From positions 345,409 through 409,408 of the forward strand of contig CAWGLD010000007.1 of NCBI GenBank assembly GCA_963823335.1: a DNA stretch of 64,000 nucleotides, given 5' to 3'. The notes under the pieces are model-generated. The model did no database searches, was not told where the DNA came from, and saw only the letters and a program-made list of their open reading frames with translations. This DNA comes from an uncultured delta proteobacterium (GTDB taxonomy: Bacteria; Desulfobacterota; Desulfobacteria; Desulfobacterales; B30-G6). Position numbers and translations under genes: made by a program. This document shows positions 10,353-53,441 of this stretch, one piece after another; the stretch's first letter is position 1; each line of letters starts with the position of its first letter.

Positions 10353-10462
10353 GGTGTCTCCTCATGGGCTCTGATGTGAACAATCTACAGCGCGTCAGCA
10401 GTCTTTTGACAATGACCGATGGACTATAGGGTATTTTTCGATGATATTCAAGGAGATAAGTC

Positions 10463-19707: not shown

Positions 19708-21303
19708 TCAATCGTCTTCCCAGTCATATGCCCTGCCGTCCTCATGGCACGCAATATTTCCGACACTTCTGACCCCACAGCTTCGAGCACCGGAGGCGTA
19801 ATCTAAATTGTCCTGAATCGTCTGACTGGGGGCTTGCTCGAACCTGGCCGTATCCAGGCCCACAAAATGTCCGACAGCCAGTTTTTGCGTAGCATGACAG
19901 ATCGTGCAGAAGATGTCTTTCTCCTCCACGTGCTTTCTGTGCTCGCCGGAATTGAAACTGTTATACTGGTCGTTTCCACGCTCGTGGCATTCCAGACAAT
20001 CCGTATCCACATTGATGGTACCGTCGACCCAACTCCGGGTGGATTGGCCGCCATGGCAACGCACCCCGCTACAGGATGCATTGCCGGAATTATAACTGAA
20101 CCCACCCGTTTCCGCACGGTAGTTAGCCGATAGTGCTACATTGGCCGGTGAATCATCATCAAAATGAACCTCTGTGTCGGTACCGGAACCATTGTGACAG
20201 GCGCTGCACTGCCCGGTGACCCGGTTGAGAGCGTTGTGAAGCACATGGGCTCCCGATCGATTGGGTCGCTGATCTCCAACCGGAAGCAGGGCGTCGGGTG
20301 GATCGTTGTGACAGGTAACACAGTTTTGATCCACCAGGGGGTCTCCGGTCAGATGACAGCCGCCGCAGGCCGTTCCGACACCCCCTTCCGCAGCTCCCAA
20401 CAGGTTTGCGCCATGACACAGCGTACAGGCAGTCTCAAAATTATCGGCTGCCTTGTGACTGTTGCCAACAGCTCCCATCCAGGGCAGGGGATGGGCGGTT
20501 CGTTTCGAATGACAGTCTTCACACCCTTCTGCCAGCTCTCCGACAAGAAGGTCGAAGCGGGGGTTGCTGCCCGGACCGCCGTCAAAGGGGCGGGCATGAC
20601 ATCTCTGGCAATAGGTCAGGTCGGCTCTGGCCTCCGGCCCATGAAGATCCGGGTCTGTAAAAGGAATGTCGTGCGGCTTGGCAGGACCATCAGCGTGGCA
20701 CCCGGATAGAATATTATCGGTGTTCCTGAACGTGTCGCTAAAGCAACTGGGCGCCTCTGAATTGGGTGCTGGACGGTTCTTTGTAAAATCGTGACAGATG
20801 CTGCAGGTAATGCTCTGTCTGCCGGCATTGCGGTGACTCGACAAGTAGTCCGGGGTCACGTCCGTGCTGCCCTGCCATCGTACAGGATGGGCGCCTGCCT
20901 CCGGGTGGCATCCAATTGCCGAACATCCCGTCGTAGCAAAGCCACCGTCGAATCGTATGGTCCCTGGTTCACCATGGCATTCCTGGCAATAATAAAGATC
21001 TGCCTTGGCGGCAGGCCCGTGGTCAACGGCGTCTGTAAACGGTAGGGCATGCATGCTGAAAGGAGGTCCGGCCGGATGACATTCCAGACAACTGGGGGAC
21101 TTCCCGGCACCTTTAAAATCAATACCGTGACACACTTGGCATCCGGACAAATCATCGTTGGCCACTTCTCCGTGCTCCTCAATGTACTTGGCCGGATGTG
21201 ACGCACGGGGTCCCGGCGCTTCCGGGTTGCTTGTGGAACAGGCCAGCAGACCGCTGAAGATCAGCGTCAATACGATCAGAAGGGATGTTTGTCTGATGGC
21301 CAT
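19708..21303 (-). CDS. Multiheme c-type cytochrome lipoprotein (CxxxxCH/CxxCH type)
   Basis: Lipobox LLAC; 12 CxxCH, 2 CxxxxCH and 2 longer C-Xn-CH motifs. Confidence 0.9.
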   Translation of the reverse strand: MAIRQTSLLIVLTLIFSGLLACSTSNPEAPGPRASHPAKYIEEHGEVANDDLSGCQVCHGIDFKGAGKSPSCLECHPAGPPFSMHALPFTDAVDHGPAAKADLYYCQECHGEPGTIRFDGGFATTGCSAIGCHPEAGAHPVRWQGSTDVTPDYLSSHRNAGRQSITCSICHDFTKNRPAPNSEAPSCFSDTFRNTDNILSGCHADGPAKPHDIPFTDPDLHGPEARADLTYCQRCHARPFDGGPGSNPRFDLLVGELAEGCEDCHSKRTAHPLPWMGAVGNSHKAADNFETACTLCHGANLLGAAEGGVGTACGGCHLTGDPLVDQNCVTCHNDPPDALLPVGDQRPNRSGAHVLHNALNRVTGQCSACHNGSGTDTEVHFDDDSPANVALSANYRAETGGFSYNSGNASCSGVRCHGGQSTRSWVDGTINVDTDCLECHERGNDQYNSFNSGEHRKHVEEKDIFCTICHATQKLAVGHFVGLDTARFEQAPSQTIQDNLDYASGARSCGVRSVGNIACHEDGRAYDWEDD

Positions 21304-21465
21304 TTTTTTGGAATTCCTTGTAAAATTGGATGCGTGATATTTATTTACACGTTGTTCCTGCTGATTGTCAAGAAAGTCGCACCGGACTTAGCGAAAGATC
21401 CACTAGATGGTTTGAATATTTTAACTGTCAATGATAACAAGAATAGAATTATAGGAACGATTTAT

Positions 21466-22944
21466 ATGAAAAAATCAAAAGCCGTCATCGCGACCCCTTC
21501 CTTTTCCGACTTCTACACCACCACCCATCGCCTGTCGGCTCTGGGCGAAAAAATCGTTGAAAAAATTCTGCGCCGCCGGGCATGGGACACCCGCTTGCTG
21601 CATTTTCCCAGGACGGGAAAACAGACCCTGCCACTACCAGCGGCCCTCTCCCATCTGAAAACCTGTCTGGTTCCAGGTGAGTTCGGTCCCACCGCATTCT
21701 TTTCCAAATATCAGCGTTTTGGGCCCTCTGCCGAAGACAGTGCCGCCGTCATTCTGACGGAAAATCCCGATGCTGTTTTCCTATCCTGTTTTGCCTTCGC
21801 CTACGCCGACGACACCCTGTCTCTTGCCAGACATCTCAAGGCGCAACGCCCATCCGTGCCCGTCTATGTGGGGGGGGCCGGGGTCAGCGTACTCCCGGGA
21901 TATTTTCAAGCCGAAAAAAGTATCGATGCGGTTATTGCCGGTGAAGCAGAATGGGCCCTGGCAAATTTTCTGGGAGAAGATACAGCCCCGGATGACAGTA
22001 TCGATCCTCACCTCGATAGCCCGGTCCGTATCGACGTCGCCATTGCAAGCACACAGTCTGCCAAAACCGGACAGTGGCTGACAACGGCCCTCAGTCGGGG
22101 ATGCCCCCGAAAGTGTCGTTTCTGCGCCAATCACCTGACCCATGGCAGGGTCTTTCGAACCGTCCCCATCGAGGCGTTTTTAGCGGCCCTCCAGACCTTT
22201 TCCAGGGACGTTCCCCTGCACATCAACTTTGAAGACGACAATCTTCTCTTGGGCAAGGACTATTTCTTTGCCCTGCTGGAAGCCATCCGAAACCGATTCC
22301 CCCGGGTGGATTTCAGCGCAGAAAACGGCATGGACTACCTATTGCTCGACGTCAGCACACTGGACAGGCTCATTGCCCTAGGTTTCAGACAGTTCAATCT
22401 TTCCATGGCATCCCTGTCCCCATCCATTCTGAAGGAATCGCACCGTCAGGGAAACCCGGAACACCTGCAGGAGATTCTTTCTTACCTGAGGCACAAAAAT
22501 ATCCCGTCCATCACCTATTTCATTTGCGGTCTGAAACAGGACACACCCGATTCCGTACTTGAAAACCTACGCTTTCTATCCAGACAACCGACGCTTATCG
22601 GCATATCGCTGTTTTATCCGGTACCGGGTCTGCCGGGATTCAGGGACACCCGACCCTTTTTCGAATCCGACTCCCATCTCTGCACCGGAAGCGCTGCGTT
22701 TCCATGGTCAGGATCCCTCACCACGGCCCAGATGATCACCGCCTTCCGTTTGGCCCGTTTTGTCAATTTCATCCAAAAAAAAGAATACCAGTCACACGAG
22801 GGCGATCTGTTGACACGTATTAAAAATGAAAGAAAACTCTATACCTTCCAGCGCAAGGGAAGGCAAAAATGGATGCTGCGACCGCCGGGTCTGGATAAAG
22901 ACATGGAAAAGGCGTTTTTTGAAAATATATATTTTCAGTTTTAG
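21466..22944 (+). CDS. B12-binding-domain radical SAM protein
   Basis: SRGCPRKCRFC, FEDDN, and N-terminal VYVGGAG...GEAE typical of cobalamin-binding radical SAMs. Start moved to ATG 21466. Confidence 0.85.
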   Translation: MKKSKAVIATPSFSDFYTTTHRLSALGEKIVEKILRRRAWDTRLLHFPRTGKQTLPLPAALSHLKTCLVPGEFGPTAFFSKYQRFGPSAEDSAAVILTENPDAVFLSCFAFAYADDTLSLARHLKAQRPSVPVYVGGAGVSVLPGYFQAEKSIDAVIAGEAEWALANFLGEDTAPDDSIDPHLDSPVRIDVAIASTQSAKTGQWLTTALSRGCPRKCRFCANHLTHGRVFRTVPIEAFLAALQTFSRDVPLHINFEDDNLLLGKDYFFALLEAIRNRFPRVDFSAENGMDYLLLDVSTLDRLIALGFRQFNLSMASLSPSILKESHRQGNPEHLQEILSYLRHKNIPSITYFICGLKQDTPDSVLENLRFLSRQPTLIGISLFYPVPGLPGFRDTRPFFESDSHLCTGSAAFPWSGSLTTAQMITAFRLARFVNFIQKKEYQSHEGDLLTRIKNERKLYTFQRKGRQKWMLRPPGLDKDMEKAFFENIYFQF

Positions 22945-23197: not shown

Positions 23198-24673
23198 TCA
23201 CGCCTCCATATGCTCATTCTTCAACGTTTCCAATGCCCTTTCTCGTATCTGATCCAGGGATTGCTGAACATCGGCAGGCAATTTCAGCGGCCGGTGGTTT
23301 TCGAGAATGTCCATGGCCTTACTGACCGCTTTTTGGCCCCATGTTTTTTGCCCCTGGGCCATCCAGGGTTCAAGGGTTTCACGGTTGCAGAGCTGGGGTT
23401 GCCAATGTTCCTGTTTAAAATATTTCATGGTCTGTTCGGTTGAAATAAAGGCGCCCTGGGGACCCACCTGGCGGATCACATCCATGCCGATATGCTCCGG
23501 GTCGATGTCAAAACCGCGAATAACACGCCTCACGTAGCTGATGATCTCCGCATTCATTACAAGTGCCGCCGGAGACCCCACCAGGCCCTGTCCCAGATAT
23601 CCAATGTCATGAATCAGATTGGCACCGTCCAGTCCGGCCATGAGTAAAGAGATAGACCATTCCATGCCGGCCTGCTCATCAGGCACGTGTGCGTCGCTGA
23701 CCCCGGCTGTTCCCCACATGGGAATGCCGTAATAATGATACAGATCCGCGCAGGCCGACAGAGCCAGCCTGTATTCCGGACAACCATATACACATGCAGA
23801 TGTCTTCATATCCAGGGTGGACATACCGAACCCGGAAATGATCGGCGCACCTTTGGCCCTTAACTGATGAAGGACGATGCCACTCAAGGCTTCGGCATTT
23901 CCAACGGTAATGGCACCGGCCAGGGTCACCGGTGCGCTGGCCCCGGACATCATACCGGGTGTATAGTTTACCGGGACCGCATTGTCGGCACAAAAAAAGA
24001 GTTTTTTGATGGCCCCCGATGAGTGCATCAACGGCGTCAGTGGCTCAGCATAATGGATATGAATCGGCTTTTCCCTCAAGACATCTTTTCCGCCAACGAC
24101 AGCCGCAGCCATCTCATTGATGATGGCGATGTCTTTGGTTCCGGCCGCAGTAAAAAAAATGGGCTTTATGGCGTTTTCCAACTGGGTCTTGAAGGAATCG
24201 ATGTACATCAGGTTGGTGGGTGAGTCATATGGCAGGGCATAGGATCCCAAAAAATCGATCTCTTCGAGGGAATCGGCTATCCTGGCGGCATTTGCCACAT
24301 CCGCCAGTCTCGACTCTCTCAACACGCCGGACACCAGGTCATAGGTTTTGATCAAATCCGTCCCCATACCGAAATAGGATTTATTGCCTTCCAGGAGCAT
24401 GGCCTCCTGACCTAAGCGGTTATAGATGGTGATCCGTGAAGGCGCACTGCGGATGCAGTCTTCAACCAGCCAGTTGGGAATCTGGACGATGTTGTCTGGT
24501 TTTATCCGGCAACCGGCATGGGCCATCATATCCAGGGCCTCCGGATGCATCACCTTGACACCCACCGTTTCCAGGAGTTCCAGGGTGGCACAATGAATAT
24601 GTTCGATCTGATCCCGGGTCAGCACCCGATAGACCGGCAGACATTGTGATTTAAAGCCTGTGTTCATTACCAT
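23198..24673 (-). CDS. MttB-superfamily corrinoid methyltransferase, pyrrolysine-free (copy 1)
   Basis: IHCATLELLETVGV, GASAPVTLAG, GNAEALSG, DEQAGME, IRQVGPQG-F. No in-frame stop. Confidence 0.92.
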   Translation of the reverse strand: MVMNTGFKSQCLPVYRVLTRDQIEHIHCATLELLETVGVKVMHPEALDMMAHAGCRIKPDNIVQIPNWLVEDCIRSAPSRITIYNRLGQEAMLLEGNKSYFGMGTDLIKTYDLVSGVLRESRLADVANAARIADSLEEIDFLGSYALPYDSPTNLMYIDSFKTQLENAIKPIFFTAAGTKDIAIINEMAAAVVGGKDVLREKPIHIHYAEPLTPLMHSSGAIKKLFFCADNAVPVNYTPGMMSGASAPVTLAGAITVGNAEALSGIVLHQLRAKGAPIISGFGMSTLDMKTSACVYGCPEYRLALSACADLYHYYGIPMWGTAGVSDAHVPDEQAGMEWSISLLMAGLDGANLIHDIGYLGQGLVGSPAALVMNAEIISYVRRVIRGFDIDPEHIGMDVIRQVGPQGAFISTEQTMKYFKQEHWQPQLCNRETLEPWMAQGQKTWGQKAVSKAMDILENHRPLKLPADVQQSLDQIRERALETLKNEHMEA

Positions 24674-24748: not shown

Positions 24749-26899
24749 TTATGCAAATTTAGGGTTCATCCGTTTGCATGCCCCGCACACATGTATTGTT
24801 TCCGGCGCAACCCCATATGGTTTGACCTGTTTTTCCATATACGAAATGTATCTGCCTGCTCCCAGTTCTTTGCCGCATCCATGACAGTATACCAGGATAT
24901 CCCTGCAGAGGGTGATACCGCAAAGCCTGAGAACACACTGACCGTTTTCATGGGTCATGGTCATGGCGCCGGTGGGGCAGCTGTTGACACAAGCACCGCA
25001 CAGGATGCACCTTCCGGCGGTTAACTCGAAATCGGTCGGCCCCGGAGCCTGGTGATCAAAATAACCGAGACCCAGTGCTTGAAAACCCAATTTTTCATGA
25101 CATGCGTCCACGCATCTGCCGCACTGAATGCACACATCGCACCTGAGGCACCGTAAAGCCTCTGTCCTGGCTGCCTGCGGTGCAAGCGTCAATTCCACCT
25201 GTTCGAAAGTCTTTTTCCTTTTCTCTATATCAAGCAGGGGCAACGATGGTCTGGTTAGCGTTGTTTTCTGAGATGCCGTTGTTTCAAGAAAAGCTGTCTG
25301 TGTCCTGCGGGCCGAAAGATATCGTGTTTTCAGCAAAGGCTGTCCCTGGAAGTATCGATGGACGTTCTCCGCCGCTAGTTTTCCAGCCGCAATGGCCTCG
25401 ATAATGGTGGCCGGACCTGTAACCAAATCGCCGCCTGCAAAAACACCTTTTGCTCCTGTCTGCCCCGTCAAAGGATCCGCGACGATGGTGTTGTGTTCCG
25501 TCCACGTCAGACCATTAAAGGCCGAAAGCCCTTCCCGGTCAGACCACTGCCCTATGGCATGAAGAACAGCATCGGTCTTGAGCTCATGCATGCTCCCCTG
25601 GATGGGGATGGGTCTTTTTCTGCCGTTTTCATCGGCCTCCCCGAGCCTGGCGTCCACACAACAAATACCGGACACCTTGCTCTGGGACCCCGATATCTCC
25701 ACAGGAATCTTCAAAAAGGACACCCGGACACCCTCCTGCTCCGCCTGGATGACATCCTCCTTCAGGGCCGGCATTTCACTCCGGGTCCGTCGGTACAGAA
25801 CCGTAACATCGCTGCTACCCAAACGCAGTGCCGTTCGGGCGGCATCCAGCGCGACATTACCTCCCCCCACAACTGCCACACGAGAACCAATGGAAGGTGC
25901 ATGCCCCAGACCGGCCTGATGTAAATACGTAATGGCATCCATGACCGGTGAAAAATCATTTTCACCTTTTATACCCATTCGCAGCCCTTTGTGGGCTCCC
26001 GTTGCAACATAGAAGGATTCAAACCCTTCCTGTCGCAACGCTTCAACCGTTATGTCCTTTCCCATACGCGTGTTGAAACGAAAGACAACACCCAGTTCTT
26101 GAATCAAAGAAATCTCTCTTTCGAGAACGGACAGGGGCAGCCGGTATCTTGGGATGCCAACACGCATCATCCCGCCGGCCCACGGCAGAGATTCGATGAC
26201 GGTTACACCATAGCCCTTGAGGGATAAATAGTAGGCCGCGCTGAGTCCGGATGGTCCGGCACCCACAATACAGACTTTGTGACCGTTGTCCTGTGCCCTG
26301 GCAGGGTTTTTAAAGCCATCACCCTCAAGGACAATTTTGGATGAAAAGGCTTTGAGGGCCTTGATGGCAACAGGTGTGTCGATGTTTTTCCTCAGGCAGG
26401 CTGTTTCACACGGATGTGTACAGGTCAGGCCGCACACCCATGGGAAAGGGTTGGCTTCCCGAATCAGCGCTATTGCTTCATGATCTCTACCCTGCCCGAT
26501 CAAGGTCACGTAGCTTGCCACATCGATACCGGCTGGGCAGGCACATTGACACGCTGCCGGTGACAAAATTTCGCAATCACCCGTCAGACAGACATGATCC
26601 CTCATATGGGTCTCAAAACAGACACCTTCTGAAAACAGTACCGCTGCAATGGTTTTGCCCAAGAATGCGACCATTTCATTTTGTGAGGATTCAAGATATT
26701 TCCCCAGAGATTCGACCCTGGACAGGTCTTGGGGAAGTGCTTTTCCAAGAGAGATTTTTTCCAGGCTGGCACACAGCGATAAAAGCGCTTTTATTAAATG
26801 AGGGGCGAGTTGTTTCTGTGATAAACAGGTGCAATCCGAGAGTAGTCGGAACACCGGGCATGAAGGACGTTTTCCTTTCTCAACACTTGTAACTTTCAT
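24749..26899 (-). CDS. FAD/NAD(P)-dependent Fe-S oxidoreductase (GltD/SudA/NfnB-like) with extra C-terminal ferredoxin
   Basis: CQCACP, CGLTCTHPCE, VGAGPSG, VGGGNVA, FAGGD, CIQCGRC, CILCGACVNSCP. Confidence 0.9.
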   Translation of the reverse strand: MKVTSVEKGKRPSCPVFRLLSDCTCLSQKQLAPHLIKALLSLCASLEKISLGKALPQDLSRVESLGKYLESSQNEMVAFLGKTIAAVLFSEGVCFETHMRDHVCLTGDCEILSPAACQCACPAGIDVASYVTLIGQGRDHEAIALIREANPFPWVCGLTCTHPCETACLRKNIDTPVAIKALKAFSSKIVLEGDGFKNPARAQDNGHKVCIVGAGPSGLSAAYYLSLKGYGVTVIESLPWAGGMMRVGIPRYRLPLSVLEREISLIQELGVVFRFNTRMGKDITVEALRQEGFESFYVATGAHKGLRMGIKGENDFSPVMDAITYLHQAGLGHAPSIGSRVAVVGGGNVALDAARTALRLGSSDVTVLYRRTRSEMPALKEDVIQAEQEGVRVSFLKIPVEISGSQSKVSGICCVDARLGEADENGRKRPIPIQGSMHELKTDAVLHAIGQWSDREGLSAFNGLTWTEHNTIVADPLTGQTGAKGVFAGGDLVTGPATIIEAIAAGKLAAENVHRYFQGQPLLKTRYLSARRTQTAFLETTASQKTTLTRPSLPLLDIEKRKKTFEQVELTLAPQAARTEALRCLRCDVCIQCGRCVDACHEKLGFQALGLGYFDHQAPGPTDFELTAGRCILCGACVNSCPTGAMTMTHENGQCVLRLCGITLCRDILVYCHGCGKELGAGRYISYMEKQVKPYGVAPETIHVCGACKRMNPKFA

Positions 26900-27014
26900 A
26901 CCTGCACCATATATATACGCTCTATTTAAACCAGGGGTCGCGGAGTTTTTCCACCAAACCTTTCGTTGGAGCGGGAGGGGTGATCAGCAGCGAAAGCGGC
27001 ACTGTCTGAATGTA

Positions 27015-28085
27015 TTAGGCTCTATCCAGATTTTCCTCTATATTCTCGAAATCAAAGCCTTCAGGATACTTGGAATAATACTCATGGTACCATTCCCTTG
27101 CCTCATAAGCCTGGATCAGATGTTCCGCCGGAACACCGAATGGGAGATCTCAGCCGGGGGCAAATGTGAACCCCTGGGTACCGCCTGCCGCAAGACTGAT
27201 CAGGGCATCTTCTCTGGGTGACAGAAGTCCCAGGCCGAGGGCAAGGGTCAACTTCAGATTTCCACCAAACCCTTTACCGTATTTTCTTGCGATATCACGG
27301 ACAAAATTCAGGTTCATCTGTTCATCGATGGCAAATCCGTGGGTACCGACCTTGCAGACATCTTCAATGACCTTTGTGCAGTCACCACAGATGAAGAAGC
27401 TGGAAGTCTTGCCGGCATCATGTATGGCTGTTACGGCTTCCTGGCAGTTGGGTGTCACATATTCCTGAAAAGTCTCAGGTCGAATCTGCGACGCTACCGG
27501 ATCCACGATAGCGATGATATCACACCCCATTTGCGTATAAAACCGGGCAGACTCGGCACAGAGTTTACCGGCATAGGCTATAATGGCATGAGCGAAATCC
27601 TTCTTTTTTTTCAATGCCGTAAAAATACGCACACCGGCCAGATGAGAAGCCAGGGTCAGGGGTCCGGTCACCAGGCCGAGCATGGCGCAGTCCATTTCGT
27701 CGAGTTGCGGTTTGACCTTGGCTGCCGCCTGGAAAATGATCGGCCACCTTCCGGATGTTTTTGTAAACACCCCCAGCCCGAGTTCTTCGGGTGTCAACTT
27801 TTCACAGGGATGGGTCTTCACCGAAGGCACATTGTCTTCCCAGTATTCCAGTTCACAACCAATGGATTCCGCTTCCAGGGAGAGATCGAACAAGAGGGGG
27901 ATGCCATCCGCATGATAGGTTTTGGCGGCATGGACAACTCCCCGGGAAAGGATATCCGCATCCTTGAGATACCTGTCTGCTTTTTCATTGATAAGATAGG
28001 CACAGTTGACACCGGCATACGGAACCCAGGGGGCCTTGTCCGTTTCTTTCCCCCGTGTGGCGTCGATGAGCATCTGTTTGGCCAT
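27015..28085 (-). CDS. MtaA/CmuA (URO-D family) methylcobamide methyltransferase-like selenoprotein, 356 aa, UGA at codon 312
   Basis: URO-D family motifs (DLSLEAESIGC, GPLTLA, DPVAS, FICGD, GGNL). The ORF track stops at FTFAPG-TGA, but the frame continues DLPFGVPAEHL...RA-TAA, matching the family APGC(D/E)LP motif. A hairpin follows the UGA. Confidence 0.85.
27114..27149 (-). promoter_or_regulatory. Bacterial SECIS-like hairpin
   Basis: After the UGA: GATCTCCCATTCGG-TGTTCC-GGC-GGAACA-TCTGATC. The G-led loop is ~20 nt downstream; core at 27121-27135. Confidence 0.7.
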
Positions 28086-28246: not shown

Positions 28247-28996
28247 TTATTTTTCTCGTATAGATCTGAACTGGCAGTGTTTCATCGCGCATTGCAGGCA
28301 TTTACTGCCCACGGGCTTTTGCTGCGCCGAATCACTGTATATGACAAAACCGGATATGGATTTTGCCGGTTGCATGACAAACGCATCATTCAGGTGCACA
28401 CCGGCTGTGTCTTGTCCCAACAGATCGAATATCAGGGTCTGGCTTTCCAGGGCCACGCCATTCAGACCCGGTCCCATCCGACATCCGGAAAAAAGACCCA
28501 TCCGTTGTGCATGCATCTCAATCATGTCATTGCATATCAACCCCATGGCATCCAGCATGGCTGTGCCAACAGCATCCAGCAGCAGGGATTGGTATATGCT
28601 GTTGCGTTTTGCAAGATCCCGGCACATGGTCTCGAGGGCACTGCCCAGGCTGCCGACAAAAACAGCAACATACCGGGCATCACTCTCCCACCTGTCAGGA
28701 AGCATGTCAGCATATGCGCCCCTTGACAAAACGATTCCGTATACTTCTTCAATCATGTCCATCGGAATCGCTCGATAACAAATAACCGCCTGTATCATCC
28801 CGACAGTCTGCCGGATGCCCTGGCATACCTGTTGACGTGTCTCCGGGGTCATGGGATAGTCCGGCCCCCCGAAGTAGCGGGCAACAGCCTCTGGTGACGG
28901 CCTGACATCTTCCGGGTCGACGTCAATTCTCACCGTCGATGAATCACCTGCCCCGAATATATCGGCAGTTATGAGTTTTTTCGGTTTGACAGTCAT
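28247..28996 (-). CDS. Stand-alone MetH activation-domain-like protein
   Basis: LLLDAVG, RMGPG, GVHLNDAFVMQPAKSISG and C-terminal CLQCAMKHCQFR. Confidence 0.8.
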   Translation of the reverse strand: MTVKPKKLITADIFGAGDSSTVRIDVDPEDVRPSPEAVARYFGGPDYPMTPETRQQVCQGIRQTVGMIQAVICYRAIPMDMIEEVYGIVLSRGAYADMLPDRWESDARYVAVFVGSLGSALETMCRDLAKRNSIYQSLLLDAVGTAMLDAMGLICNDMIEMHAQRMGLFSGCRMGPGLNGVALESQTLIFDLLGQDTAGVHLNDAFVMQPAKSISGFVIYSDSAQQKPVGSKCLQCAMKHCQFRSIREK

Positions 28997-29113: not shown

Positions 29114-29140
29114 AAATAAAATCGCCCGGCGATTTTATTT
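29114..29140 (-). terminator. Hairpin directly after mtmB-like gene
   Basis: AAATAAAATCGCC-C-GGCGATTTTATTT, perfect inverted repeat with A/T tails. Confidence 0.55.
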
Positions 29141-30522
29141 TAGTAGGGAAACTCAATTCCCATGTCTGCGATTTCATCTTTGATTCTGCGGTACATATCG
29201 TAATGTTCCTGGGTCGGCACCGCTTTGGCGACATCGTAGCATTCATGGTACTCACTCCCGATGGGCGCATCTGCGGCATGGTCCTCGTATTTTGCCAGCA
29301 ATTTCTTGGCAATCGCATTGACTTCGGCCCGGGACAAGCCCTGGCACGCGACAGCATGGCCCACTTCCATGCCGATTCTGGCTTCCAGCGGTGTTGCACG
29401 ATTCTTGTATTTGTTGCGGGTCGAAGCCATCTCCCACAGGTGCCATCCAGTGACCGTCGAGACCATGGCGTGAACCGCGGTTTCCCGAAACAGCATCTCC
29501 GTCATGGGACCGGCATTGGCGAATCCATTGGAAGTATGCAGCAGTTTACTGTTTCTGGCCAGCGCCTGCCCTGCCATGGCGATGGCCCACAGCAACTCCC
29601 GGGTGGTGTTGGAACCGTAATTCAAATGAAATGGAAAGTGCTGATTGAAAACAGCACCGTGAATCACCAGACCGATAAGACTGTAGGCGACCGTGGTCAC
29701 CGCCGTTCCCTCTGAGCCGCCGCACCATCCACCGTAAATCGCCCCGGTCAGGTTCCCGGTATAGCAGCCATACTGGGCATAATGAAGGGAGCGATTGAGA
29801 AGTGTGTCGGCGGTCTTGAACTCGGTCAGGGACCCTACAAGCCGTGCATCTGATTTTTGAACGCCCCACTCCTGGTTTGATACGGCGATTTGACCGCTGT
29901 CGTGCTCCGCGGTCCCCACGGCAACCATAAATGTTCCCGGCCGTCCCAGCAGTCTTGCCGCCAGCTTCTGATTGGTGATGTGCTGGATACAGCCGCTGAT
30001 TTCAGAGGGACCCGAAGATTCGATCAGATGACCAAAGGTCTCTTCCAGGATCGGCCCGCAAATGCCGTCCAGAAGTGGTTCCTTGAGATAGGCCATGCAC
30101 ATGGACTGGTGGTACTGCTCGTCACAGGTGATGTCCGGGCTCATGATACAGAATGGGGGGGCCGTGTCTTCCACCTGCCGGTGTTTCCACAGGACAGCGT
30201 CTTTTCCGGCACCCACCCAATATTGATCATGGGCCATATACAGCGCTTCCCGAATCTCTTCATCGGTGACCTGGATCAGCCGGTGGGAATCGGTATTGTA
30301 ATACCCCACATCCCGGAACAGCTCCCAGGCAGCCTGCCAGATTCTGTCAGCCATGGCATCGTCTGTGGGGCACGGGTTTTCCGGGTCATATTTTATTTCA
30401 TATTTTTTGATAAGTTTTTTCAGGGTCGGTGTAAAGTGCTTGGGAAGAAAATCATCCTCCTCCATAAAAGGACCGGTCTGGGATCGTTCGAGAATCTCCC
30501 AGTGCCTGTAGGCTGTTGTCAT
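29140..30522 (-). CDS. MtmB-family (monomethylamine-type) corrinoid methyltransferase, pyrrolysine-free
   Basis: 460 aa; ERSQTGP, DDAMADRIW, GRPG, AGPMTEML, TPLEARI, ECYD. No amber codon. Confidence 0.88.
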   Translation of the reverse strand: MTTAYRHWEILERSQTGPFMEEDDFLPKHFTPTLKKLIKKYEIKYDPENPCPTDDAMADRIWQAAWELFRDVGYYNTDSHRLIQVTDEEIREALYMAHDQYWVGAGKDAVLWKHRQVEDTAPPFCIMSPDITCDEQYHQSMCMAYLKEPLLDGICGPILEETFGHLIESSGPSEISGCIQHITNQKLAARLLGRPGTFMVAVGTAEHDSGQIAVSNQEWGVQKSDARLVGSLTEFKTADTLLNRSLHYAQYGCYTGNLTGAIYGGWCGGSEGTAVTTVAYSLIGLVIHGAVFNQHFPFHLNYGSNTTRELLWAIAMAGQALARNSKLLHTSNGFANAGPMTEMLFRETAVHAMVSTVTGWHLWEMASTRNKYKNRATPLEARIGMEVGHAVACQGLSRAEVNAIAKKLLAKYEDHAADAPIGSEYHECYDVAKAVPTQEHYDMYRRIKDEIADMGIEFPY

Positions 30523-30797: not shown

Positions 30798-31433
30798 TCA
30801 TTTTGAGATGATCAAGTTTGCTAAAAGTTCAGGCGCACTCTTGGCGTCCTTACAGTAAAGGTCGGCACCGATCTGGTCGGCCCAAAGCTGGGAAGTGGGC
30901 GCACCACCGATAACAACCTTATATTGATCCCTTATCCCTTTTGAATTTAAAATCTCTATGATTTCTTTCTGACGTGGCATGGTGGTGGTCATCAGCGATG
31001 AAGCGCCGATGAAATCAGCACCCATGGCCTCGGCCTCCTTGATAAAGGTCAGCGGATCCACGTTGTATCCCAGATCCTTCACCACGAAACCATTGGTTTC
31101 CAGGATGAGCTTGACGATATTTTTGCCGATTTCATGCAGGTCCCCTTTGACCACGCCGATCACGATCTTGCCTTTGACTTCCTGTCCGCCGACCTCGTCC
31201 AGATAGGGCGCCATTACCTCGACCACAGCGGACAAGGCCTCTCCGGCCAGCATGATCTCGGGAAGGAAAATTTCCAGTTTTGAAAACAGGTCCCCCACAT
31301 GTGCCATGGTCCTGGTCATGGCCGCTATCATTTCCAGAGGGTTTGCACCGTCCTTGAGAAGCCTTTCGGCAAGCTCCCGGGCCTCCTCTGCTTCACCGTC
31401 TTCCACAAATTTGCTCAATTCCTCCAACGACAT
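30798..31433 (-). CDS. Corrinoid (B12-binding) protein, MttC/MtmC-like
   Basis: FLPEIMLAG, GDLHEIGKNIV, SSLMTTT, VIGGAP. Start moved to ATG 31433 after AGGAGG. Confidence 0.95.
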   Translation of the reverse strand: MSLEELSKFVEDGEAEEARELAERLLKDGANPLEMIAAMTRTMAHVGDLFSKLEIFLPEIMLAGEALSAVVEVMAPYLDEVGGQEVKGKIVIGVVKGDLHEIGKNIVKLILETNGFVVKDLGYNVDPLTFIKEAEAMGADFIGASSLMTTTMPRQKEIIEILNSKGIRDQYKVVIGGAPTSQLWADQIGADLYCKDAKSAPELLANLIISK

Positions 31434-31639
31434 GTCAGGCCTCCTTGCTATCAGCTCTTTTAGGATAATAATATAGATTGTTATAATAACGCATTTCACC
31501 TTGCCCTGAAGCAAGATGTTGCCGTAAAAAATCAGAAATTCCGGAGAACTAGATGAACATCGAATCCCGTCACGGCGGGAAACGTTCAGCATCCAACGTC
31601 GAATACGACAGGTCTCCGCATTTTGTACGGCTTCCTAAG

Positions 31640-31712: not shown

Positions 31713-32459
31713 TTATGGGGTCATGTTTTCCTGTTTAAAGAAATCGGCTGGGTCGAACTGGGGCGAGAAGGTATCCCGGAAAGCCATCTCACCGCGCATG
31801 TAATACTCCACATAGGTAACCGGATCGTCAAATGAATAGATCGTCCGCTTGATATGGAACACAGGATAACCCGGTTTTACACCAAAGATGGGGGCGGTCT
31901 CTTCTGAAAGAACGATCGCCTCCATACTCTGGCTGATCCTGGTAAGCTGCAGTTTGTATTTATTGATCAGAATGCTGTGAATGGATTCGTTTTTGAGATC
32001 CTCCCAGAGAATACCGGCACAGATATCAGGCCGTAGGTACCGTATTTCGTAACGCACCGGCTTTTGATCGAAATACCACAGACGGCTGATAAGAATCAAC
32101 TGCTCCCCGGTTTCCAGCTGTTTTGAAACATCGGCCGGAGGGTCTACCACCTGTGCCTTTTGAACATCCGTTGTCAGAACCACGTTCAGATCGTCAGCCC
32201 ACTTCTGAAACGGTCTGACCCGGAAAAATCCGGTGGTGTAATGCTTCTTCTTCACGAAGGTACCCTTGCCCGGCACGCGCTCAACAAACCCTTCCCTCTC
32301 TATGGCATCGATGGCTTTTCTGGCCGTCATGCGGCTGACACCAAAGGTTTCCGCCAGCCTGTTTTCCGAAGGCACAACATCCAAAAAATTTCGTGCCTTG
32401 ATGCCTTTGATGACATACTCCTTTATCTTTTCGTATTTCGGAATCTTTTTTTGCATCAT
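31713..32459 (-). CDS. hutC: GntR/HutC-family regulator (wHTH + UTRA)
   Basis: PSENRLAETFGVSRMTARKA...GKGTFV plus UTRA domain. Divergent from hutU. Confidence 0.85.
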   Translation of the reverse strand: MMQKKIPKYEKIKEYVIKGIKARNFLDVVPSENRLAETFGVSRMTARKAIDAIEREGFVERVPGKGTFVKKKHYTTGFFRVRPFQKWADDLNVVLTTDVQKAQVVDPPADVSKQLETGEQLILISRLWYFDQKPVRYEIRYLRPDICAGILWEDLKNESIHSILINKYKLQLTRISQSMEAIVLSEETAPIFGVKPGYPVFHIKRTIYSFDDPVTYVEYYMRGEMAFRDTFSPQFDPADFFKQENMTP

Positions 32460-32487
32460 ACATCCCCGTTTCACGGTCTGAAAACCC

Positions 32488-32597
32488 TGTATATACATCT
32501 GGCACACTATAGCCCCACCCGTTTGGATTGTCGAGAGCAAATTCCGCTTGACAAGTCCGGGAACGATGGTCATAACTACTCTTTGATTGTATATACA
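32488..32597. promoter_or_regulatory. Two HutC-type boxes and hutU promoter
   Basis: TGTATATACA at 32488-32497 and 32588-32597; TTGACA(32548)-17bp-CATAAC promoter between them. Confidence 0.8.
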
Positions 32598-32654: not shown

Positions 32655-34688
32655 GTGACAACCCATCCCCTTGCTGGTGATACCATGATGATCGAACCGG
32701 ACCAAAATCTCCCCGAACTGCCTGAGTTTGAAAGAGATATTCGCCGGGCCCCGGACCGCGGCTTTCGTCTGACACCCCAACAGGCTGAAATATCGCTGAA
32801 AAATGCCCTGCGCTATATTCCCGTAAAATGGCACGAAACCCTGGCATCCGAATTTCTGAATGAGTTGATGACACGTGGGAGGATCTATGGTTACCGGTAT
32901 AGACCCGCAGGGCCCATCAAGGCCAGGCCGGTTCATTCCTACACAGGCAGATGTCTTGCCGGAAAAGCCTTCCAGGTGATGATCGACAACAACCTTGATT
33001 TTGACGTCGCCCTCTATCCTTATGAACTGGTGACCTATGGAGAAACCGGGTCTGTCTGCCAGAACTGGATGCAGTATCGCCTGATAAAAAAATATCTGGA
33101 AGTACTCACCGAGGACCAGACTCTGGTGGTGGCATCCGGTCATCCCCTGGGGCTTTTTCAATCAAGACCGACCAACCCCCGGGTCATCATTACCAACGGA
33201 TTGATGGTTGGCAGATATGACAACCTGGATGATTGGGAAATTGCCGCCCAGATGGGAGTGGCAAGTTACGGCCAGATGACGGCTGGAGGATGGATGTATA
33301 TCGGTCCCCAGGGTATTGTGCATGGGACCTACAATACACTCCTGAACGCAGGTAGAATAAGATTCGGTCTGAGCAAGGAAGCCAATCTTGCCGGACGACT
33401 GTTTGTCTCTTCAGGCCTGGGGGGCATGAGCGGCGCTCAACCAAAAGCCGCAGAGATCGCCGGAGCCGTATCCATTATCGCCGAGGTTGATGGCTCCAGG
33501 ATACTGACCCGGCACCAGCAGGGCTGGGTAAAACATGTCTCTGACGATCTGGAAGAAACCTTTGCCCTGGCGGCTCAGGCCACTCAGAAGGGGGAACCGC
33601 TCTCCATCGCTTTTGCCGGGAACATCGTCGATCTGCTGGAGTACGCGGTGGACCACAACATAAAAATCGACCTGCTTTCGGATCAGACGTCATGCCATGT
33701 GGCCTATACCGGCGGGTACTGCCCCCAGGGCATCACCTTTGAAGAAAGAACCCGGCTCCTGGCAGAAAACAGAGGGACATTCTGTAAGCTTGTGGATAAA
33801 AGCCTCCGTCGCCACTTTGAATTGATCAAGATTCTCACGTCCAGGGGTGTCTATTTTTTTGATTACGGCAATGCGTTTCTAAAAGCGGTTTTCGACGCAG
33901 GCGTAACCGAAATTTCCAACAATGGCCTCGACGAAAAGGACGGGTTCATCTTTCCATCCTACTTTGAGGACATCATGGGACCCCATATTTTTGATTTCGG
34001 ATACGGCCCGTTCCGCTGGGTCTGTTTGAGCGGTGATCATAATGACCTGGTAAAGACCGACAAGGCAGCCATGGACTGCATCGATCCCCTTCGCAGGTAT
34101 CAGGACAGGGACAACTGGACCTGGATCAGGGATGCGGAAAAGTACCATCTCGTAGTGGGAACCCAGGCCAGGATCCTGTATCAGGACGCGGAAGGCAGAA
34201 TCAGGATCGCACTGAAATTCAACGAGATGGTAAGAAAGGGAGACGTGGGCCCCATAATGATCGGCCGGGATCACCACGATCCCGGCGGGACGGATTCACC
34301 CTTCCGGGAAACAGCCAATATAAATGATGGCAGCAATGTGATGGCCGACATGGCCACCCACTGTTTTGGTGGAAACTGCGCCAGGGGTATGTCCATGGTC
34401 GCTCTGCACAACGGTGGCGGGACAGGGATAGGAAATGCCATAAACGGCGGGTTTGGCCTGGTGCTGGACGGCAGTCAGAGAGTGGACGACACCATCCGGT
34501 CCGCTATTTCCTGGGATGTCATGGGCGGTGTGGCCAGACGGAACTGGGCCCGCAATACCAATGCCATGGAGGTCTGCCGAACCTTCAATGAGGCGAACAA
34601 GGGTGTGGGTCATGTCACCATTCCCTATCTGCCGGAAGAAAGCCTGGTTAAGGATATCGTGTCCAACGCTTTTAAGAAAAGGTCCTGA
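32655..34688 (+). CDS. hutU: Urocanate hydratase, long form, canonical
   Basis: YGQMTAGGWMYIGPQGIVHGT, GLGGMSGAQP, SDQTSCH, GRDHHD, HNGGG. GTG start after AAGGAGG. Confidence 0.95.
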   Translation: MTTHPLAGDTMMIEPDQNLPELPEFERDIRRAPDRGFRLTPQQAEISLKNALRYIPVKWHETLASEFLNELMTRGRIYGYRYRPAGPIKARPVHSYTGRCLAGKAFQVMIDNNLDFDVALYPYELVTYGETGSVCQNWMQYRLIKKYLEVLTEDQTLVVASGHPLGLFQSRPTNPRVIITNGLMVGRYDNLDDWEIAAQMGVASYGQMTAGGWMYIGPQGIVHGTYNTLLNAGRIRFGLSKEANLAGRLFVSSGLGGMSGAQPKAAEIAGAVSIIAEVDGSRILTRHQQGWVKHVSDDLEETFALAAQATQKGEPLSIAFAGNIVDLLEYAVDHNIKIDLLSDQTSCHVAYTGGYCPQGITFEERTRLLAENRGTFCKLVDKSLRRHFELIKILTSRGVYFFDYGNAFLKAVFDAGVTEISNNGLDEKDGFIFPSYFEDIMGPHIFDFGYGPFRWVCLSGDHNDLVKTDKAAMDCIDPLRRYQDRDNWTWIRDAEKYHLVVGTQARILYQDAEGRIRIALKFNEMVRKGDVGPIMIGRDHHDPGGTDSPFRETANINDGSNVMADMATHCFGGNCARGMSMVALHNGGGTGIGNAINGGFGLVLDGSQRVDDTIRSAISWDVMGGVARRNWARNTNAMEVCRTFNEANKGVGHVTIPYLPEESLVKDIVSNAFKKRS

Positions 34689-34689
34689 A

Positions 34690-36255
34690 ATGCAATCCAT
34701 TGTTATCGACAAGGAAAATTTGACCATTGAGGATGTGGTGGCCATCGCCCGAAAAGGTGTGCGGGTCGATGCCTCCAGCCAGGGCGTGCTGCGGGTCGAA
34801 AAAGCCCGTGAGCTGATCGCCAAATGGGTCAGTGAAAAAAAAGTGATCTATGGAATCACCACCGGGTTTGGCGCCTTGTGCAATGTTCCCATTTCGGAAT
34901 CCGACACCCGGTTGCTGCAGAATAAAATCATCATGAGCCACGCCTCGGGCGTGGGGTCACCCCTTCCCGAAGATGTTGTTCGGGCTGTAATGGCCGTCCG
35001 GCTGCATGACCTGTTCATGGGATACTCCGGCTGTTCAATCACGACCCTGCGGTACTTGATGGCCTTTCTCAACCAGGGGCTGACACCGGTCGTGCCTGAA
35101 AAGGGATCGGTGGGATCCAGCGGAGACCTGGCACCCATGGCTCACCTGGGTCTGGTTCTGTTAGGAAAAGGCGAGGCTTTTTATAAGGGCGAACGCCTCA
35201 GCGGTGCCAGGGCACTGGAAAAGATCGGACTTTCCCCCATCAGCCTTGCAGCCGGGGAAGGTCTGGCCCTTATCAACGGTACCCAGGTAATGACCGGCAT
35301 CGCCACCCTGGTGGTTCACGATGCCATCCGCCTGGCAAAAATGGCTGACATCGCCTGCGCCATGAGCCTGGAAGTGCTCATGGGAAGCAATTCTGAATTC
35401 GACCCGCGAATTCATCAGATACGACCTCATCCGGGGCAGATTGCGTCAGCCGAAAATATGCTGCGACTGACCAGTGAAAGTGAAATCATTCTCTCCCACG
35501 AAGGATGCGCCCGTGTTCAGGATGCCTATACCCTGCGATGTTCGCCCCAGATTCACGGTGCCAGTAAGGATGCCGTCGTACATGCTCAAAATGTTGTGAA
35601 GATTGAAATCAATGCATCCACCACCAACCCGTTGATCTTCACCGACACCCAGGAGATCCGCCTGGGAGGAAATTTTCACGGCCAGCCCATCGCCATGGCA
35701 GCCGATTACCTCTCCATGGGGATTGCCGAATTAGGGAATGTGTCCGAACGTCGCATCGAAAGGCTGGTCAACCCGCAATTGAGCGAACTGCCCGCCTTTC
35801 TGGTAAAAAACGGCGGACTCAATTCAGGATTCATGATAGCCCAGTACACGGCCGCCGCCCTGGTTTCCGAAAACAAAGTGCTGGCACATCCAGCTTGTGT
35901 GGACTCGATTCCCACTTCTGCGAACAAGGAAGACCATGTCAGCATGGGCACCATCGCTATTCGACAGTGCCGGGAAATTCTGGATAATGTAGAGCATGTT
36001 CTTGCCGTGGAGATGCTGTGCGCTGCTCAGGCCTATGATCTCCTGAATGAAAAGAACAAAATGATGGGAGGCAGGGGCACTCGGGTAGCCCACCAGGTAA
36101 TTCGAGAAACAATTTCCTATCTTGAAGAAGACCGGGAGCTGTTCATAGATATCGAAAAGATGGTGGCCCTGATCCGCTCAGGTAAAATAATACACGCAGT
36201 GGAAAAGGCTGTGGGTAAGCTCGATCTGGTCAGCTTTGATAAACAGAGCTGCTGA
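34690..36255 (+). CDS. hutH: Histidine ammonia-lyase, canonical
   Basis: YGITTGFG, SHASGVG, MIO triad SSG, QDAYTLRC, GGNFHGQP, EDHVSMG. Start moved to ATG 34690. Confidence 0.93.
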   Translation: MQSIVIDKENLTIEDVVAIARKGVRVDASSQGVLRVEKARELIAKWVSEKKVIYGITTGFGALCNVPISESDTRLLQNKIIMSHASGVGSPLPEDVVRAVMAVRLHDLFMGYSGCSITTLRYLMAFLNQGLTPVVPEKGSVGSSGDLAPMAHLGLVLLGKGEAFYKGERLSGARALEKIGLSPISLAAGEGLALINGTQVMTGIATLVVHDAIRLAKMADIACAMSLEVLMGSNSEFDPRIHQIRPHPGQIASAENMLRLTSESEIILSHEGCARVQDAYTLRCSPQIHGASKDAVVHAQNVVKIEINASTTNPLIFTDTQEIRLGGNFHGQPIAMAADYLSMGIAELGNVSERRIERLVNPQLSELPAFLVKNGGLNSGFMIAQYTAAALVSENKVLAHPACVDSIPTSANKEDHVSMGTIAIRQCREILDNVEHVLAVEMLCAAQAYDLLNEKNKMMGGRGTRVAHQVIRETISYLEEDRELFIDIEKMVALIRSGKIIHAVEKAVGKLDLVSFDKQSC

Positions 36256-36341: not shown

Positions 36342-36833
36342 ATGAATGTTGTATTTGTTGAACTTGATCGGTGCATTGCCTGCTTGAGTTGTGAAAAGGC
36401 ATGTCTGTTTCAACAGGCAGCCAGAAACACAGAGGCAAGCCCGAATATCTTTGTTCGCGTGGACCTGGACCGACGCCGGATTTATGCCGGCACATGCCTG
36501 CAGTGTGAAACCGCTCTCTGCCTGGAAGTATGCCCGATCAAAGCCATAACACGAGATCCGGAAACGTCGGCCGTTATCGTCGATCAGAAGATTTGTCTCG
36601 GGTGTGGTATGTGCGTATCGGCCTGCCCTTTTGGATACATGTACCTGGAAGACTCCTGCCAAAAGGCAACCAAATGCGACCTGTGCGGCGGTACGCCGAA
36701 GTGCGTTCAGATGTGCATGGCCAGGGCCTTACATTTCGGCAGCATCAATTCTCTTGCCGAACGCAAACGTAAACAGACCGATTTGCGCCTGAGTCTTAGG
36801 GCCGTCCCAATCCATACGGGTGAAGAAAAATGA
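36342..36833 (+). CDS. 4Fe-4S dicluster electron-transfer subunit (DmsB/HydN-like)
   Basis: CIACLSCEKAC, CLQCETALCLEVCP, CLGCGMCVSACP, KCDLC. Confidence 0.92.
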   Translation: MNVVFVELDRCIACLSCEKACLFQQAARNTEASPNIFVRVDLDRRRIYAGTCLQCETALCLEVCPIKAITRDPETSAVIVDQKICLGCGMCVSACPFGYMYLEDSCQKATKCDLCGGTPKCVQMCMARALHFGSINSLAERKRKQTDLRLSLRAVPIHTGEEK

Positions 36834-47322: not shown

Positions 47323-47414
47323 ACCTGTTCCTATTGTGATTTGTGATTTTAGTGTTTCACTCGAATCCTCGAATCCTCGAACCCTGGAATCCTTGATCAA
47401 CTTTTTTGCGTTGA

Positions 47415-49048: not shown

Positions 49049-49138
49049 ATCGTGTAACAATCACTTGAACCCTTGAGTCCTTGACCCCTTGAACCCTTTC
49101 TCCCGAAAAACGGGCAGAAACACAAAGGAGAACCTGGA

Positions 49139-50044: not shown

Positions 50045-50170
50045 AATCGTTTCACGATTTTTTTCGTGCTTTCGTCGTTTCGTGATTTCGTGATAAAAGA
50101 GCTGTTTTCTTTCCCGGCTTGTCCGAATAGACGCCAGTAATTAGACAATCAGACTTTCAGAGGTTGAACA

Positions 50171-52995: not shown

Positions 52996-53345
52996 ATCCT
53001 AATATCGAAATACGAAACAAACTCAAATTTCAAATGTTCAAATTATCAAGACATAGCAATTTGGCTCGGATGGCTTCACTTGTTTCGGTCATTGGGATTT
53101 ATATCATTTGGTATTGTTTAGGATTTCTTATTTCATGCTTCGAATTTAGTTGGGCTTCGATATCTGCAAAGTTCACAGACACTAACATGAACGTCCAACA
53201 TCGAACGTCCAACATCGAATTTTGAATGGGTAGAAAGGAAGAAATAGAAATTAGCTCATAGGGCTTGATCAGGTAACAGCTATCACCTATCAGCTATTAG
53301 TGTGTTTTCATTCGACGTTGGACTAGTTCGATGTTCGATGTTCAT
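52994..53345. repeat. Family C (52994-53148) and family B (53187-53345) inverted-repeat elements inside the operon
   Basis: Two stacked long hairpin-forming elements between the hutH-like and hutU-like genes. Confidence 0.75.
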
Positions 53346-53441
53346 CTTTTTAAAATTTTAAATACCTCCGAAGGCTTGGGGTTCAAGGATCCAAAATATT
53401 ATACCTTTAATGTGCATACAATAATGAAGGAGGCTCAGACT

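Follow-up and report, generated by a model that had tools for sequence, protein, structure and literature searches.

A predicted selenocysteine-containing clade of MtaA-like corrinoid methyltransferases in Desulfobacterales and their relatives

The methylcobamide:coenzyme M methyltransferases MtaA and MtbA of Methanosarcina (structures 4ay7 and 4ay8) are barrel proteins that work with a corrinoid protein and with a first methyltransferase of the methylamine type, and we take the H-x-C...C columns of MtaA to be its zinc ligands. We analysed a 64,000-nucleotide window (the whole stretch of DNA examined; positions 345,409 to 409,408 of contig CAWGLD010000007.1) from an uncultured delta proteobacterium of the Desulfobacterales, which at 27015..28085 on the minus strand encodes an MtaA-like protein of the uroporphyrinogen decarboxylase (URO-D) fold with an in-frame UGA codon at 27150..27152. 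We read this codon as selenocysteine (Sec) and call the predicted product Sec-MtaA. It resembles MtaA and MtbA in the barrel, the Cys of the HxC motif, the APG-C/U motif and the company of a corrinoid protein and a methylamine-type first methyltransferase. It differs in its sequence (22% identity), in having Phe for the His and Sec for the distal Cys, in its bacterial hosts and in its additional thioredoxin-like, thioredoxin reductase (TrxR)-like and COG0523 partners.

Three further groups of described systems bear on this gene. The zinc ligands of MetE are His618, Cys620, Glu642 and Cys704, and MT2-A is said to share that ligand set (available part of PMC539065); Sec-MtaA shares the order of these ligand positions and the distance of 22 residues from Cys to Glu. 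MetE differs in taking its methyl group straight from methyl-folate with no corrinoid, in its double barrel and in keeping the His. We know of no Sec form of MetE. In [NiFeSe] hydrogenase and formate dehydrogenase, Sec takes part in chemistry at a metal. These two families, together with the predicted HgcA and MbdU, have Sec at a metal-ligand Cys column and are listed in the available part of PMC13188914; in such proteins Sec replaces the ligand Cys of relatives, as in Sec-MtaA, but the metals are Ni, Mo/W and Co, and none of the families listed there has Sec as a ligand of catalytic zinc. Lastly, the Mlp proteins of type 1 mlp clusters and Methanococcus SdmBC are MtaA homologues beyond methylotrophic methanogenesis, accompanied by a corrinoid protein and a RACo or Ram activase. 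They are linked to selenium metabolism, ClMlp2 having methylcobalamin:selenide activity; in the available parts of the sources (PMC10418091, PMC11097638) none of them is called a selenoprotein and most of the clusters come from Firmicutes, whereas Sec-MtaA itself carries Sec. The available text of the mlp cluster paper has no mention of Deltaproteobacteria or of Desulfo- names, and that of an earlier version has one mention of 'desulfobacter'.

A UGA codon within an MtaA-like reading frame

The open reading frame (ORF) runs on the minus strand, as do all window features below unless stated otherwise, from an ATG at 28085-28083, with AGGAGG at 28097-28092, to a TAA at 27017-27015. Its 356 codons include a lone in-frame TGA at 27152-27150 (codon 312, context GFTFAPG-U-DLPFGVPAEHL), with 44 codons between TGA and TAA; direct reading and translation thus agree with the original prediction, made from the letters alone, of a TGA inside an APG-*-DLP motif. 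The 356-residue read-through product matches Pfam URO-D (PF01208) over residues 3-330, that is, past the TGA (1.2e-42, 146.6 bits against a cut-off of 23.9), and its best match in the PDB by sequence alignment is Methanosarcina mazei MtaA (4ay7, 1.1e-18). Modelling with AlphaFold2 from an alignment of 37 rows gave a mean predicted local distance difference test score (pLDDT) of 94.3. The top Foldseek matches of the model are 4ay8 and 4ay7 (template modelling score 0.85-0.90, root-mean-square deviation 2.1 Å), and MetE barrels are also among them. Residues 313-336 have a pLDDT of 95-98 and contain helix 320-336, the last barrel helix, which MtaA has too in the alignment to 4ay7; because this helix lies after the UGA, a 311-residue product would be without it. 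In the model, Sec312 is at the mouth of the barrel, in the position of the distal zinc-ligand Cys of methylcobamide:coenzyme M methyltransferases.

Alignment to 4ay7 places APG[U]DLP on APGCGI, with the TGA on the Cys of APGC, as had been proposed for the terminal zinc-ligand column of MtaA, and places FFICGD (codons 230-235, 27381..27398) on LHICGN. Cys233 is retained and invariant, and Phe231 stands on the His of the H-x-C motif. This replacement of the His, already remarked in the original prediction, is real but not specific to the Sec form: FF[IV]CG is present in 117 of the best 120 protein clusters, and the Phe is clade-wide and occurs in Cys forms too, and is therefore not tied to Sec. 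Asp254 and Glu255 are at least 90% conserved (alignment A4), and Glu255 (27321..27323) lies 22 residues past Cys233, the spacing of the Glu zinc ligand of MetE (available part of PMC539065). A second neighbouring Cys, C236, is Ala in many clade members. We considered two substitutes for the lost His and rejected both, His92 because MtaA has it too and the Asp following Cys/Sec because it is also present in relatives that retain the His. The traits of the MT2 family that Sec-MtaA does have are the URO-D fold, the Cys of H-x-C, an acidic residue at +22, and a corrinoid protein and activation genes nearby.

A species-representative genome collection (one genome per species) contained 102 stretches encoding a relative, the best 80 of which were analysed as loci, and a protein search returned 1033 relatives, of which the best 120 clusters were inspected at the Sec column. 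TGA stands at this column in 78 of the 80 loci, the contigs of the remaining two ending upstream of it. The same TGA at one column in 78 of the 78 loci that reach it is more than chance, and the TGA is not a private nonsense mutation, one of the dangers foreseen for the original prediction. At the same column, 97 of the best 120 protein clusters end exactly at ...PG, 22 have Cys and one has Trp, and 94 are 311 residues long as database gene calls; of 14 full-length relatives aligned to the protein, 13 have Cys in this position and one has Trp. A class-level sample of 401 genomes gave matches in 42 genomes, with a single TGA in 41 of 45 match rows; the other four rows are two fragments ending ahead of the column and two paralogues (37-39% identity). 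A phylum-level sample, likewise of 401 genomes, gave matches in 10, with TGA in 10 of 11 rows and TGT, that is, Cys, in the last (locus L113, 55% identity). The Cys/UGA pairing expected of homologues is thus found both in the protein clusters, with 22 Cys and 97 stops, and at the DNA level in L113.

UGA carriers include Desulfocicer vacuolatum DSM 3385 (L079), Desulfatitalea alkaliphila (L089), the Olavius Delta 1 symbiont (L034, L099), and metagenome-assembled genomes assigned to Dethiobacter and Nitrospinaceae. A second Sec copy, 69% identical, is encoded in the same genome as the window, at C5:244017-245048 (10018-11049 of locus L101). In a tree of the Sec and Cys forms, built with no support test and used here for no claim on the direction of change, the two forms interleave and the basal branches are Cys. 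One full-length cluster, P0069, has Trp at the Sec/Cys column (SPGWDMPY) and nests beside Sec forms; it may represent either a UGA-to-UGG change, which should disable the site, or an error.

Past the UGA, 74 distinct sequences have conserved residues and varying codons: a conserved Ala (67 of 74 sequences) uses four codons and a conserved Arg (69 of 74) uses five. About 30 family-like codons therefore follow in the same frame under protein-level selection, and they have no start codon of their own.

As a rule of thumb, a bacterial selenocysteine insertion sequence (SECIS) is a stem-loop with a G in the apical loop, the loop lying 16-37 nt from the UGA. The gene carries a SECIS-like hairpin, GGUGUUCC-GGC-GGAACAUC, at 27119..27137, which agrees with this rule in being a stem-loop 3' of the UGA, in the G of its loop and in its distance of about 20 nt: the stem, of 7-8 bp, begins about 12-13 nt after the UGA, the loop lies about 20-21 nt after it, and the apical loop is G(G/U)N across sequences. 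The hairpin TGTTCC-GGC-GGAACA had been placed about 20 nt downstream; its core stands, with that distance suiting the loop, since the stem starts at 13 nt. It is present in the minimum free energy fold of the window sequence and is the sole consensus structure, of 7 bp, found by RNAalifold in 74 sequences, where stem cells are paired in 90.5% of cases, against 20-59% with a slid 3' arm. Two pairs carry compensatory changes, UA to CG in three sequences and AU to GC in three. The strongest sign for the hairpin is its near-frozen synonymous sites, with codon entropies in the stem of 0.12 bit for Asp, 0 for Val, 0.10 for Pro, 0.36 for Glu and 0.41 for His, against 0.9-1.9 bit for codons outside the stem (Asp, Pro, Gln, Ala). 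Conserved folding, pairing and synonymous sites together are consistent with the SECIS-like element anticipated just 3' of the UGA. At this position the Dethiobacter copy also forms a hairpin, whose stem sequence differs (ACGUUC/GAACGU), and in the Cys-form DNA of L113, a single case, the hairpin is down to 4 bp with a CCC loop.

The genome encodes the four genes that had been named as a check on the Sec assignment, all above curated cut-offs: selA (610 bits), selB (373), the tRNA-Sec gene selC (75) and selD (372). The selD gene has an in-frame TGA of its own (SGAGUASK) and is of the Sec type. The same genome encodes PylD (251 bits, above cut-off) beside this Sec-type SelD (C2:77134-77955 and C5:144246-145172), and the organism probably decodes both UAG as pyrrolysine (Pyl) and UGA as Sec.

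All or part of the stretch is contained in 15 studies, and we compared contigs from two DNA runs and two RNA-library runs of four studies. None has an alternative letter at 27150-27152. A DNA contig (X3 record 9, 27106-27366) has 0 differences from the window and an RNA-library contig (X4 record 18, 27062-27314; such contigs are not proof of transcription) has one, at 27309. Strain variants beside the UGA codon are synonymous or are a Gly-to-Asp change known from relatives. The TGA, which was to be verified in reads, is thus present in contigs from independent DNA and RNA-library runs.

Role, direction and chemistry of the predicted enzyme

Of the 80 loci, 56 encode a corrinoid protein near the gene; in the window, Pfam and NCBIfam matches identify a cognate corrinoid (B12-binding) protein at 30798..31592. 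Between it and Sec-MtaA, at 29140..30522, lies a full-length non-Pyl MtmB homologue (Pfam MtmB, 9.4e-87) with Val at the Pyl202 column of 1l2q and no match to an NCBIfam model; this gene adjoins the Sec gene in 25 of the 80 loci, where its identity of 78-97% exceeds the conservation of the Sec enzyme, and likely encodes the substrate:corrinoid methyltransferase of the operon. Two locus types recur. Type A, that of the window (25 of 80), comprises, in this order, a GntR/UTRA regulator, the corrinoid protein, the MtmB-like protein, sometimes an ORF resembling the MetH activation domain, the Sec gene and often an MttB-family gene. Type B, which is RACo-linked (39 of 80) and includes the second locus of the window's genome (L101, C5:234000-253000), comprises, again in order, an MtrH/MtgA-like protein, a canonical MtaA-like protein (LHICGQ, PGCD), a corrinoid protein, RACo, DUF6951, DUF2284 and the Sec gene. 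Both types share the genes directly downstream of this one: orf129 is present in 60 of the 80 loci, a COG0523 GTPase gene in 55 and a TrxR-like gene, often found there, in 29. These counts are lower bounds, as contigs end. The most constant neighbour, orf129, encodes a 129-residue thioredoxin-like CxxC protein.

We show here the recoding signature, the fold, the position of Sec in that fold and the partnership with a corrinoid protein. With good confidence, we take the TGA to be a Sec codon and the product to be a full-length, 356-residue MtaA/URO-D TIM-barrel protein that works with a corrinoid partner in methyl transfer at a Cys/Glu/Sec site. The proposal of a Sec-containing enzyme is supported by the Cys/UGA pairing, the shared UGA, the conserved hairpin, the sel genes and the independent contigs, which all agree. 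Such an enzyme would carry out methyl transfer between the corrinoid protein encoded next to it and an S or Se nucleophile, which would be held at the metal of the Cys233/Glu255/Sec312 site during transfer. Transfer at a metal is suggested by the fold, the corrinoid partner, the retained Cys233, Glu255 at +22 and residue 312. Candidate acceptors are sulfide, selenide or a low-molecular-weight thiol; in the opposite direction, the methyl group could come from a methyl-thioether or methyl-selenoether. The conserved neighbours, namely the CxxC protein, the TrxR-like flavoprotein and the COG0523 GTPase, may serve to load the metal and to maintain the Cys-Sec pair in its reduced state. COG0523 genes cluster with Zn-dependent mtaA/mtaB (available part of PMC2770081). 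Zinc-free MetE crystals have a disulfide between two Cys ligands (available part of PMC539065), and disulfide formation of this kind on zinc loss would explain a dedicated thioredoxin-like reductant for the Cys-Sec pair.

Several observations weigh against this interpretation. The Sec assignment is drawn from sequence and predicted structure, and the proposed acceptors are candidates. The His of H-x-C is absent (Phe231) across the clade, both in the 4ay7 alignment and in the 120 clusters, so zinc binding is not assured. Curated NCBIfam cut-offs are not reached, with 126 against 235.4 for TIGR01463, 115.9 against 244 for NF004889 and 105 against 400 for the MtaA equivalog. The fold energy of the hairpin is no better than that of shuffles (z = 0.11 for 71 nt, -0.43 for 48 nt, and -0.78), and the case for it therefore rests on conservation; covariation is thin, with 2 of 8 pairs compensatory in mutually related sequences, a count reached by 64 of 500 shuffles; and an Rfam search of 26950-27250 with all families at E <=10 returned two chance long non-coding RNA matches and no SECIS family. 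The window copy has lost the thioredoxin-like gene by deletion and lacks a nearby COG0523 gene, whereas both are retained at the second locus of the genome. Finally, type B loci also hold an MtrH/MtgA-like methyltransferase and a canonical HxC MtaA-like protein, and because of these the direction of methyl flow in type B is ambiguous.

By analogy with known gene layouts, the enzyme of the window operon, with its corrinoid protein, MtmB-like protein and Sec-MtaA, most likely has an MtbA-like second-step role. It had been called the only obvious second-step methyltransferase in the island, a description that fits the window, where the 48 scanned ORFs gave methyltransferase-family matches only to MttB, MtmB and the URO-D protein. 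A reverse, first-step role is a serious but lesser possibility: here the enzyme would take a methyl group from an S or Se compound (dimethylsulfide, methanethiol, methylmercaptopropionate or dimethylselenide, for example) and transfer it to the corrinoid protein, from which the MtrH/MtgA-like enzyme would pass the methyl group to tetrahydrofolate. This fits type B, the commoner locus type, with its MtrH/MtgA-like and canonical MtaA-like proteins, corrinoid protein and RACo, and it recalls the MtaA-like Methanococcus SdmBC and Clostridium Mlp2, which are tied to methyl-selenide use (available parts of PMC11097638 and PMC10418091). Window-type loci, in contrast, pair the MtmB-like protein with a corrinoid protein in what is an mtmCB plus mtbA layout, type A loci gave no MtrH-like match, and the window gave no pterin-type match. 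The reaction is reversible in principle, and both roles may hold in different loci. We rated low a 'thiol shuttle' between the two locus types, as only 2 of the 42 positive class-level genomes have more than one match: that of the window (G000) and G251, in which the extra matches are contig-end fragments.

As to the site itself, we lean slightly towards Cys233, Glu255 and Sec312 forming a remodelled metal site minus the His ligand. That this would be the first natural family with Sec as a ligand of catalytic zinc, or of another thiophilic metal, and would at the same time fill the missing MtbA-like role, is a more doubtful proposition that we offer tentatively. Under it, methyl groups from the MtmB-like and MttB-type systems would pass to a thiol, sulfide or selenide, and the thioredoxin-like protein, the reductase and the COG0523 GTPase would be a maturation set for the Se-metal site. 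We think it rather unlikely that Sec312 and Cys233 instead form a metal-free redox or nucleophilic centre (selenenylsulfide/selenolate), recycled in each turnover by the Trx/TrxR-like partners, with a chemistry unlike the Lewis-acid thiol activation of MtaA. Loss of the His ligand throughout the clade, Cys forms included, keeps this alternative alive, and it draws further on the Ala found at C236 in many members, on the CxxC protein in 60 of 80 loci and its fusion to relatives, on the TrxR-like gene in 29 of 80, and on the disulfide-oxidoreductase-type iron-sulfur (FeS) flavoprotein that adjoins the Sec gene in the window. The remodelled metal site is favoured by the retention of Cys233, Glu255 (at MetE-like spacing) and residue 312 at exact ligand positions and by the metallochaperone-type COG0523 GTPase in 55 of 80 loci, such genes clustering with Zn-dependent mtaA (available part of PMC2770081), and the reductases can be explained as upkeep of an oxidation-prone site.

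That the UGA is an ordinary stop, giving a 311-residue product or a pseudogene with a fortuitous downstream frame or a separate small gene behind it, is very improbable and already close to refuted. It is true that gene callers give a protein of 311 residues for 94 of the best 120 clusters, and that the hairpin is not thermodynamically exceptional. This explanation has to contend with one stop column in 78 of 78 loci and Cys there in full-length relatives, with 30 selected in-frame codons that lack a start codon, with their forming the last barrel helix (pLDDT 95-98) that MtaA also has, and with complete Sec machinery in the genome. An assembly or sequencing error for TGC or TGT is hardly credible, as the TGA recurs in contigs of other studies, including X3 (DNA, 0 differences over 27106-27366) and X4 (RNA library), and the identical codon is found in 78 other assemblies.

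Sec-MtaA among catalogued selenoproteins

As far as can be seen, Sec-MtaA belongs to a real, widespread and uncatalogued Sec-containing clade of MtaA-like corrinoid methyltransferases, likely a new selenoprotein family that is widespread in Desulfobacterales and kin. The selenoprotein review catalogues PMC9312934 and PMC13188914, in their available parts, have no entry for uroporphyrinogen, PF01208, MtaA or a corrinoid methyltransferase; the 2007 paper on the Olavius Delta 1 symbiont, itself a carrier, has no mention of a decarboxylase or a corrinoid; and a preprint on eight new selenoprotein families has no match to the Sec-MtaA family. No Sec-containing URO-D/MtaA protein was found in our literature searches, though supplementary tables of selenoproteome papers may list the family, and no model of NCBIfam 20.0 reaches its cut-off on Sec-MtaA. 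One consequence is a systematic annotation error, in that the database proteins of 97 of the best 120 clusters stop short at the UGA. The predicted chemistry is unusual as well, placing Sec in a MetE/MtaA-type thiol-alkylating metal site, a setting unlike that of the usual redox selenoproteins. In Pyl-using marine deltaproteobacteria no MtbA was found and the second methyltransferase was called uncharacterised (available part of PMC8318568); if Sec-MtaA is an MtbA-like second methyltransferase, it would fill this gap reported for methylamine-using deltaproteobacteria. The family is accessible to culture work through the cultured carriers Desulfocicer vacuolatum DSM 3385 and Desulfatitalea alkaliphila.

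A chimeric tail and the neighbouring genes

The C terminus of the window protein differs from that of its relatives, which terminate about 31 residues past Sec (...YPE), whereas the window protein continues with GFDFENIEENLDRA. These 14 codons (27060-27018; feature 27015..27060 with the stop) match the C-terminal tail of orf129, the small gene that comes next after the Sec gene in relatives. In the DNA, window 27200-27061 corresponds to L021 6886-7025 and window 27063-27018 to L021 7480-7525, and the segment between, L021 7026-7479, which holds the thioredoxin-like gene, is missing from the window. A deletion of about 455 bp therefore removed orf129 and fused its last 14 codons in frame, leaving the tail as a remnant of the 3' end of the deleted gene. 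The junction is spanned by contigs X2 record 2 and X8 record 24. From 27060 on, the contigs of other strains depart from the window sequence and carry instead a stop codon, a ribosome-binding site and the beginning of the small gene. Of the 44 further family-like codons described in the original prediction, the count up to the TAA holds, but only about 30 are family-like and the last 14 are the fused remnant.

Orf129 itself has no Pfam match even at E 1. Its thioredoxin-like label rests on a weak NCBIfam match (33 bits), on its likeness to the C-terminal domain fused to the MtaA-like protein P0131 (42% identity over 88 residues), and on the match of the fused domain in P0128 to Pfam Thioredoxin_3. 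Four relatives at 34-36% identity (P0128, P0129, P0131 and P0134) have the MtaA-like barrel fused to a thioredoxin-like CxxC domain, and this fusion, set beside the separate gene in Desulfobacterales, links the Sec enzyme and orf129.

In the window, the operon is headed by a GntR/UTRA regulator (31713..32573; Pfam), found in the same place and direction in 10 of the 80 loci. An ORF with a MetH activation-domain-like region (28247..28996; Met_synt_B12, 4.6e-09; 10 of 80 loci) sits inside this corrinoid methyltransferase operon and hints at S-adenosylmethionine-dependent corrinoid reactivation, instead of or alongside RACo. Directly downstream of the Sec gene is the FeS flavoprotein of the pyridine-nucleotide-disulfide oxidoreductase type (24749..26899; Pfam, NCBIfam; 3 of 80 loci), a protein of 716 residues with a part resembling the glutamate synthase small subunit and ferredoxin domains, and with weaker matches to YgfK and to the NCBIfam model 'diclust_near_Sec'. 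A non-Pyl MttB-family methyltransferase (23198..24673; Pfam, NCBIfam; 10 of 80 loci) ends the operon. RACo (38794-40896; Pfam) lies 10 kb away on the opposite strand to the Sec gene, and the window locus has one MtaA-like gene. The arrangement by which mlp clusters are recognised, as far as the criteria are given in the available text (at least two MtaA-like genes with a corrinoid protein and Ram/RACo, co-directional), is seen in L101 and not in the window's own locus. L101 also holds a thioredoxin-like CxxC protein, a small Thioredoxin_3 protein, two COG0523 GTPases, a TrxR-like gene and MeaB.

Elsewhere in the window (32655-36255, 45853-47400 and 48485-56821) are two histidine ammonia-lyase-type genes, two urocanase genes, an imidazolonepropionase-like gene, both formiminotransferase-cyclodeaminase parts and a HutC-type regulator. 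These histidine-degradation-type genes are interleaved with three non-Pyl MttB-family genes (at 23198, 45853 and 55343), and one may speculate that the island serves methylated histidines, for example hercynine, ergothioneine or N-methylhistidine. Around the methyltransferase genes, four regions (36342-38890, 43520-45637, 21289-22944 and 19708-21303) encode two molybdopterin oxidoreductases, one with a 4Fe-4S partner, a B12-binding radical SAM protein and a multihaem cytochrome c.

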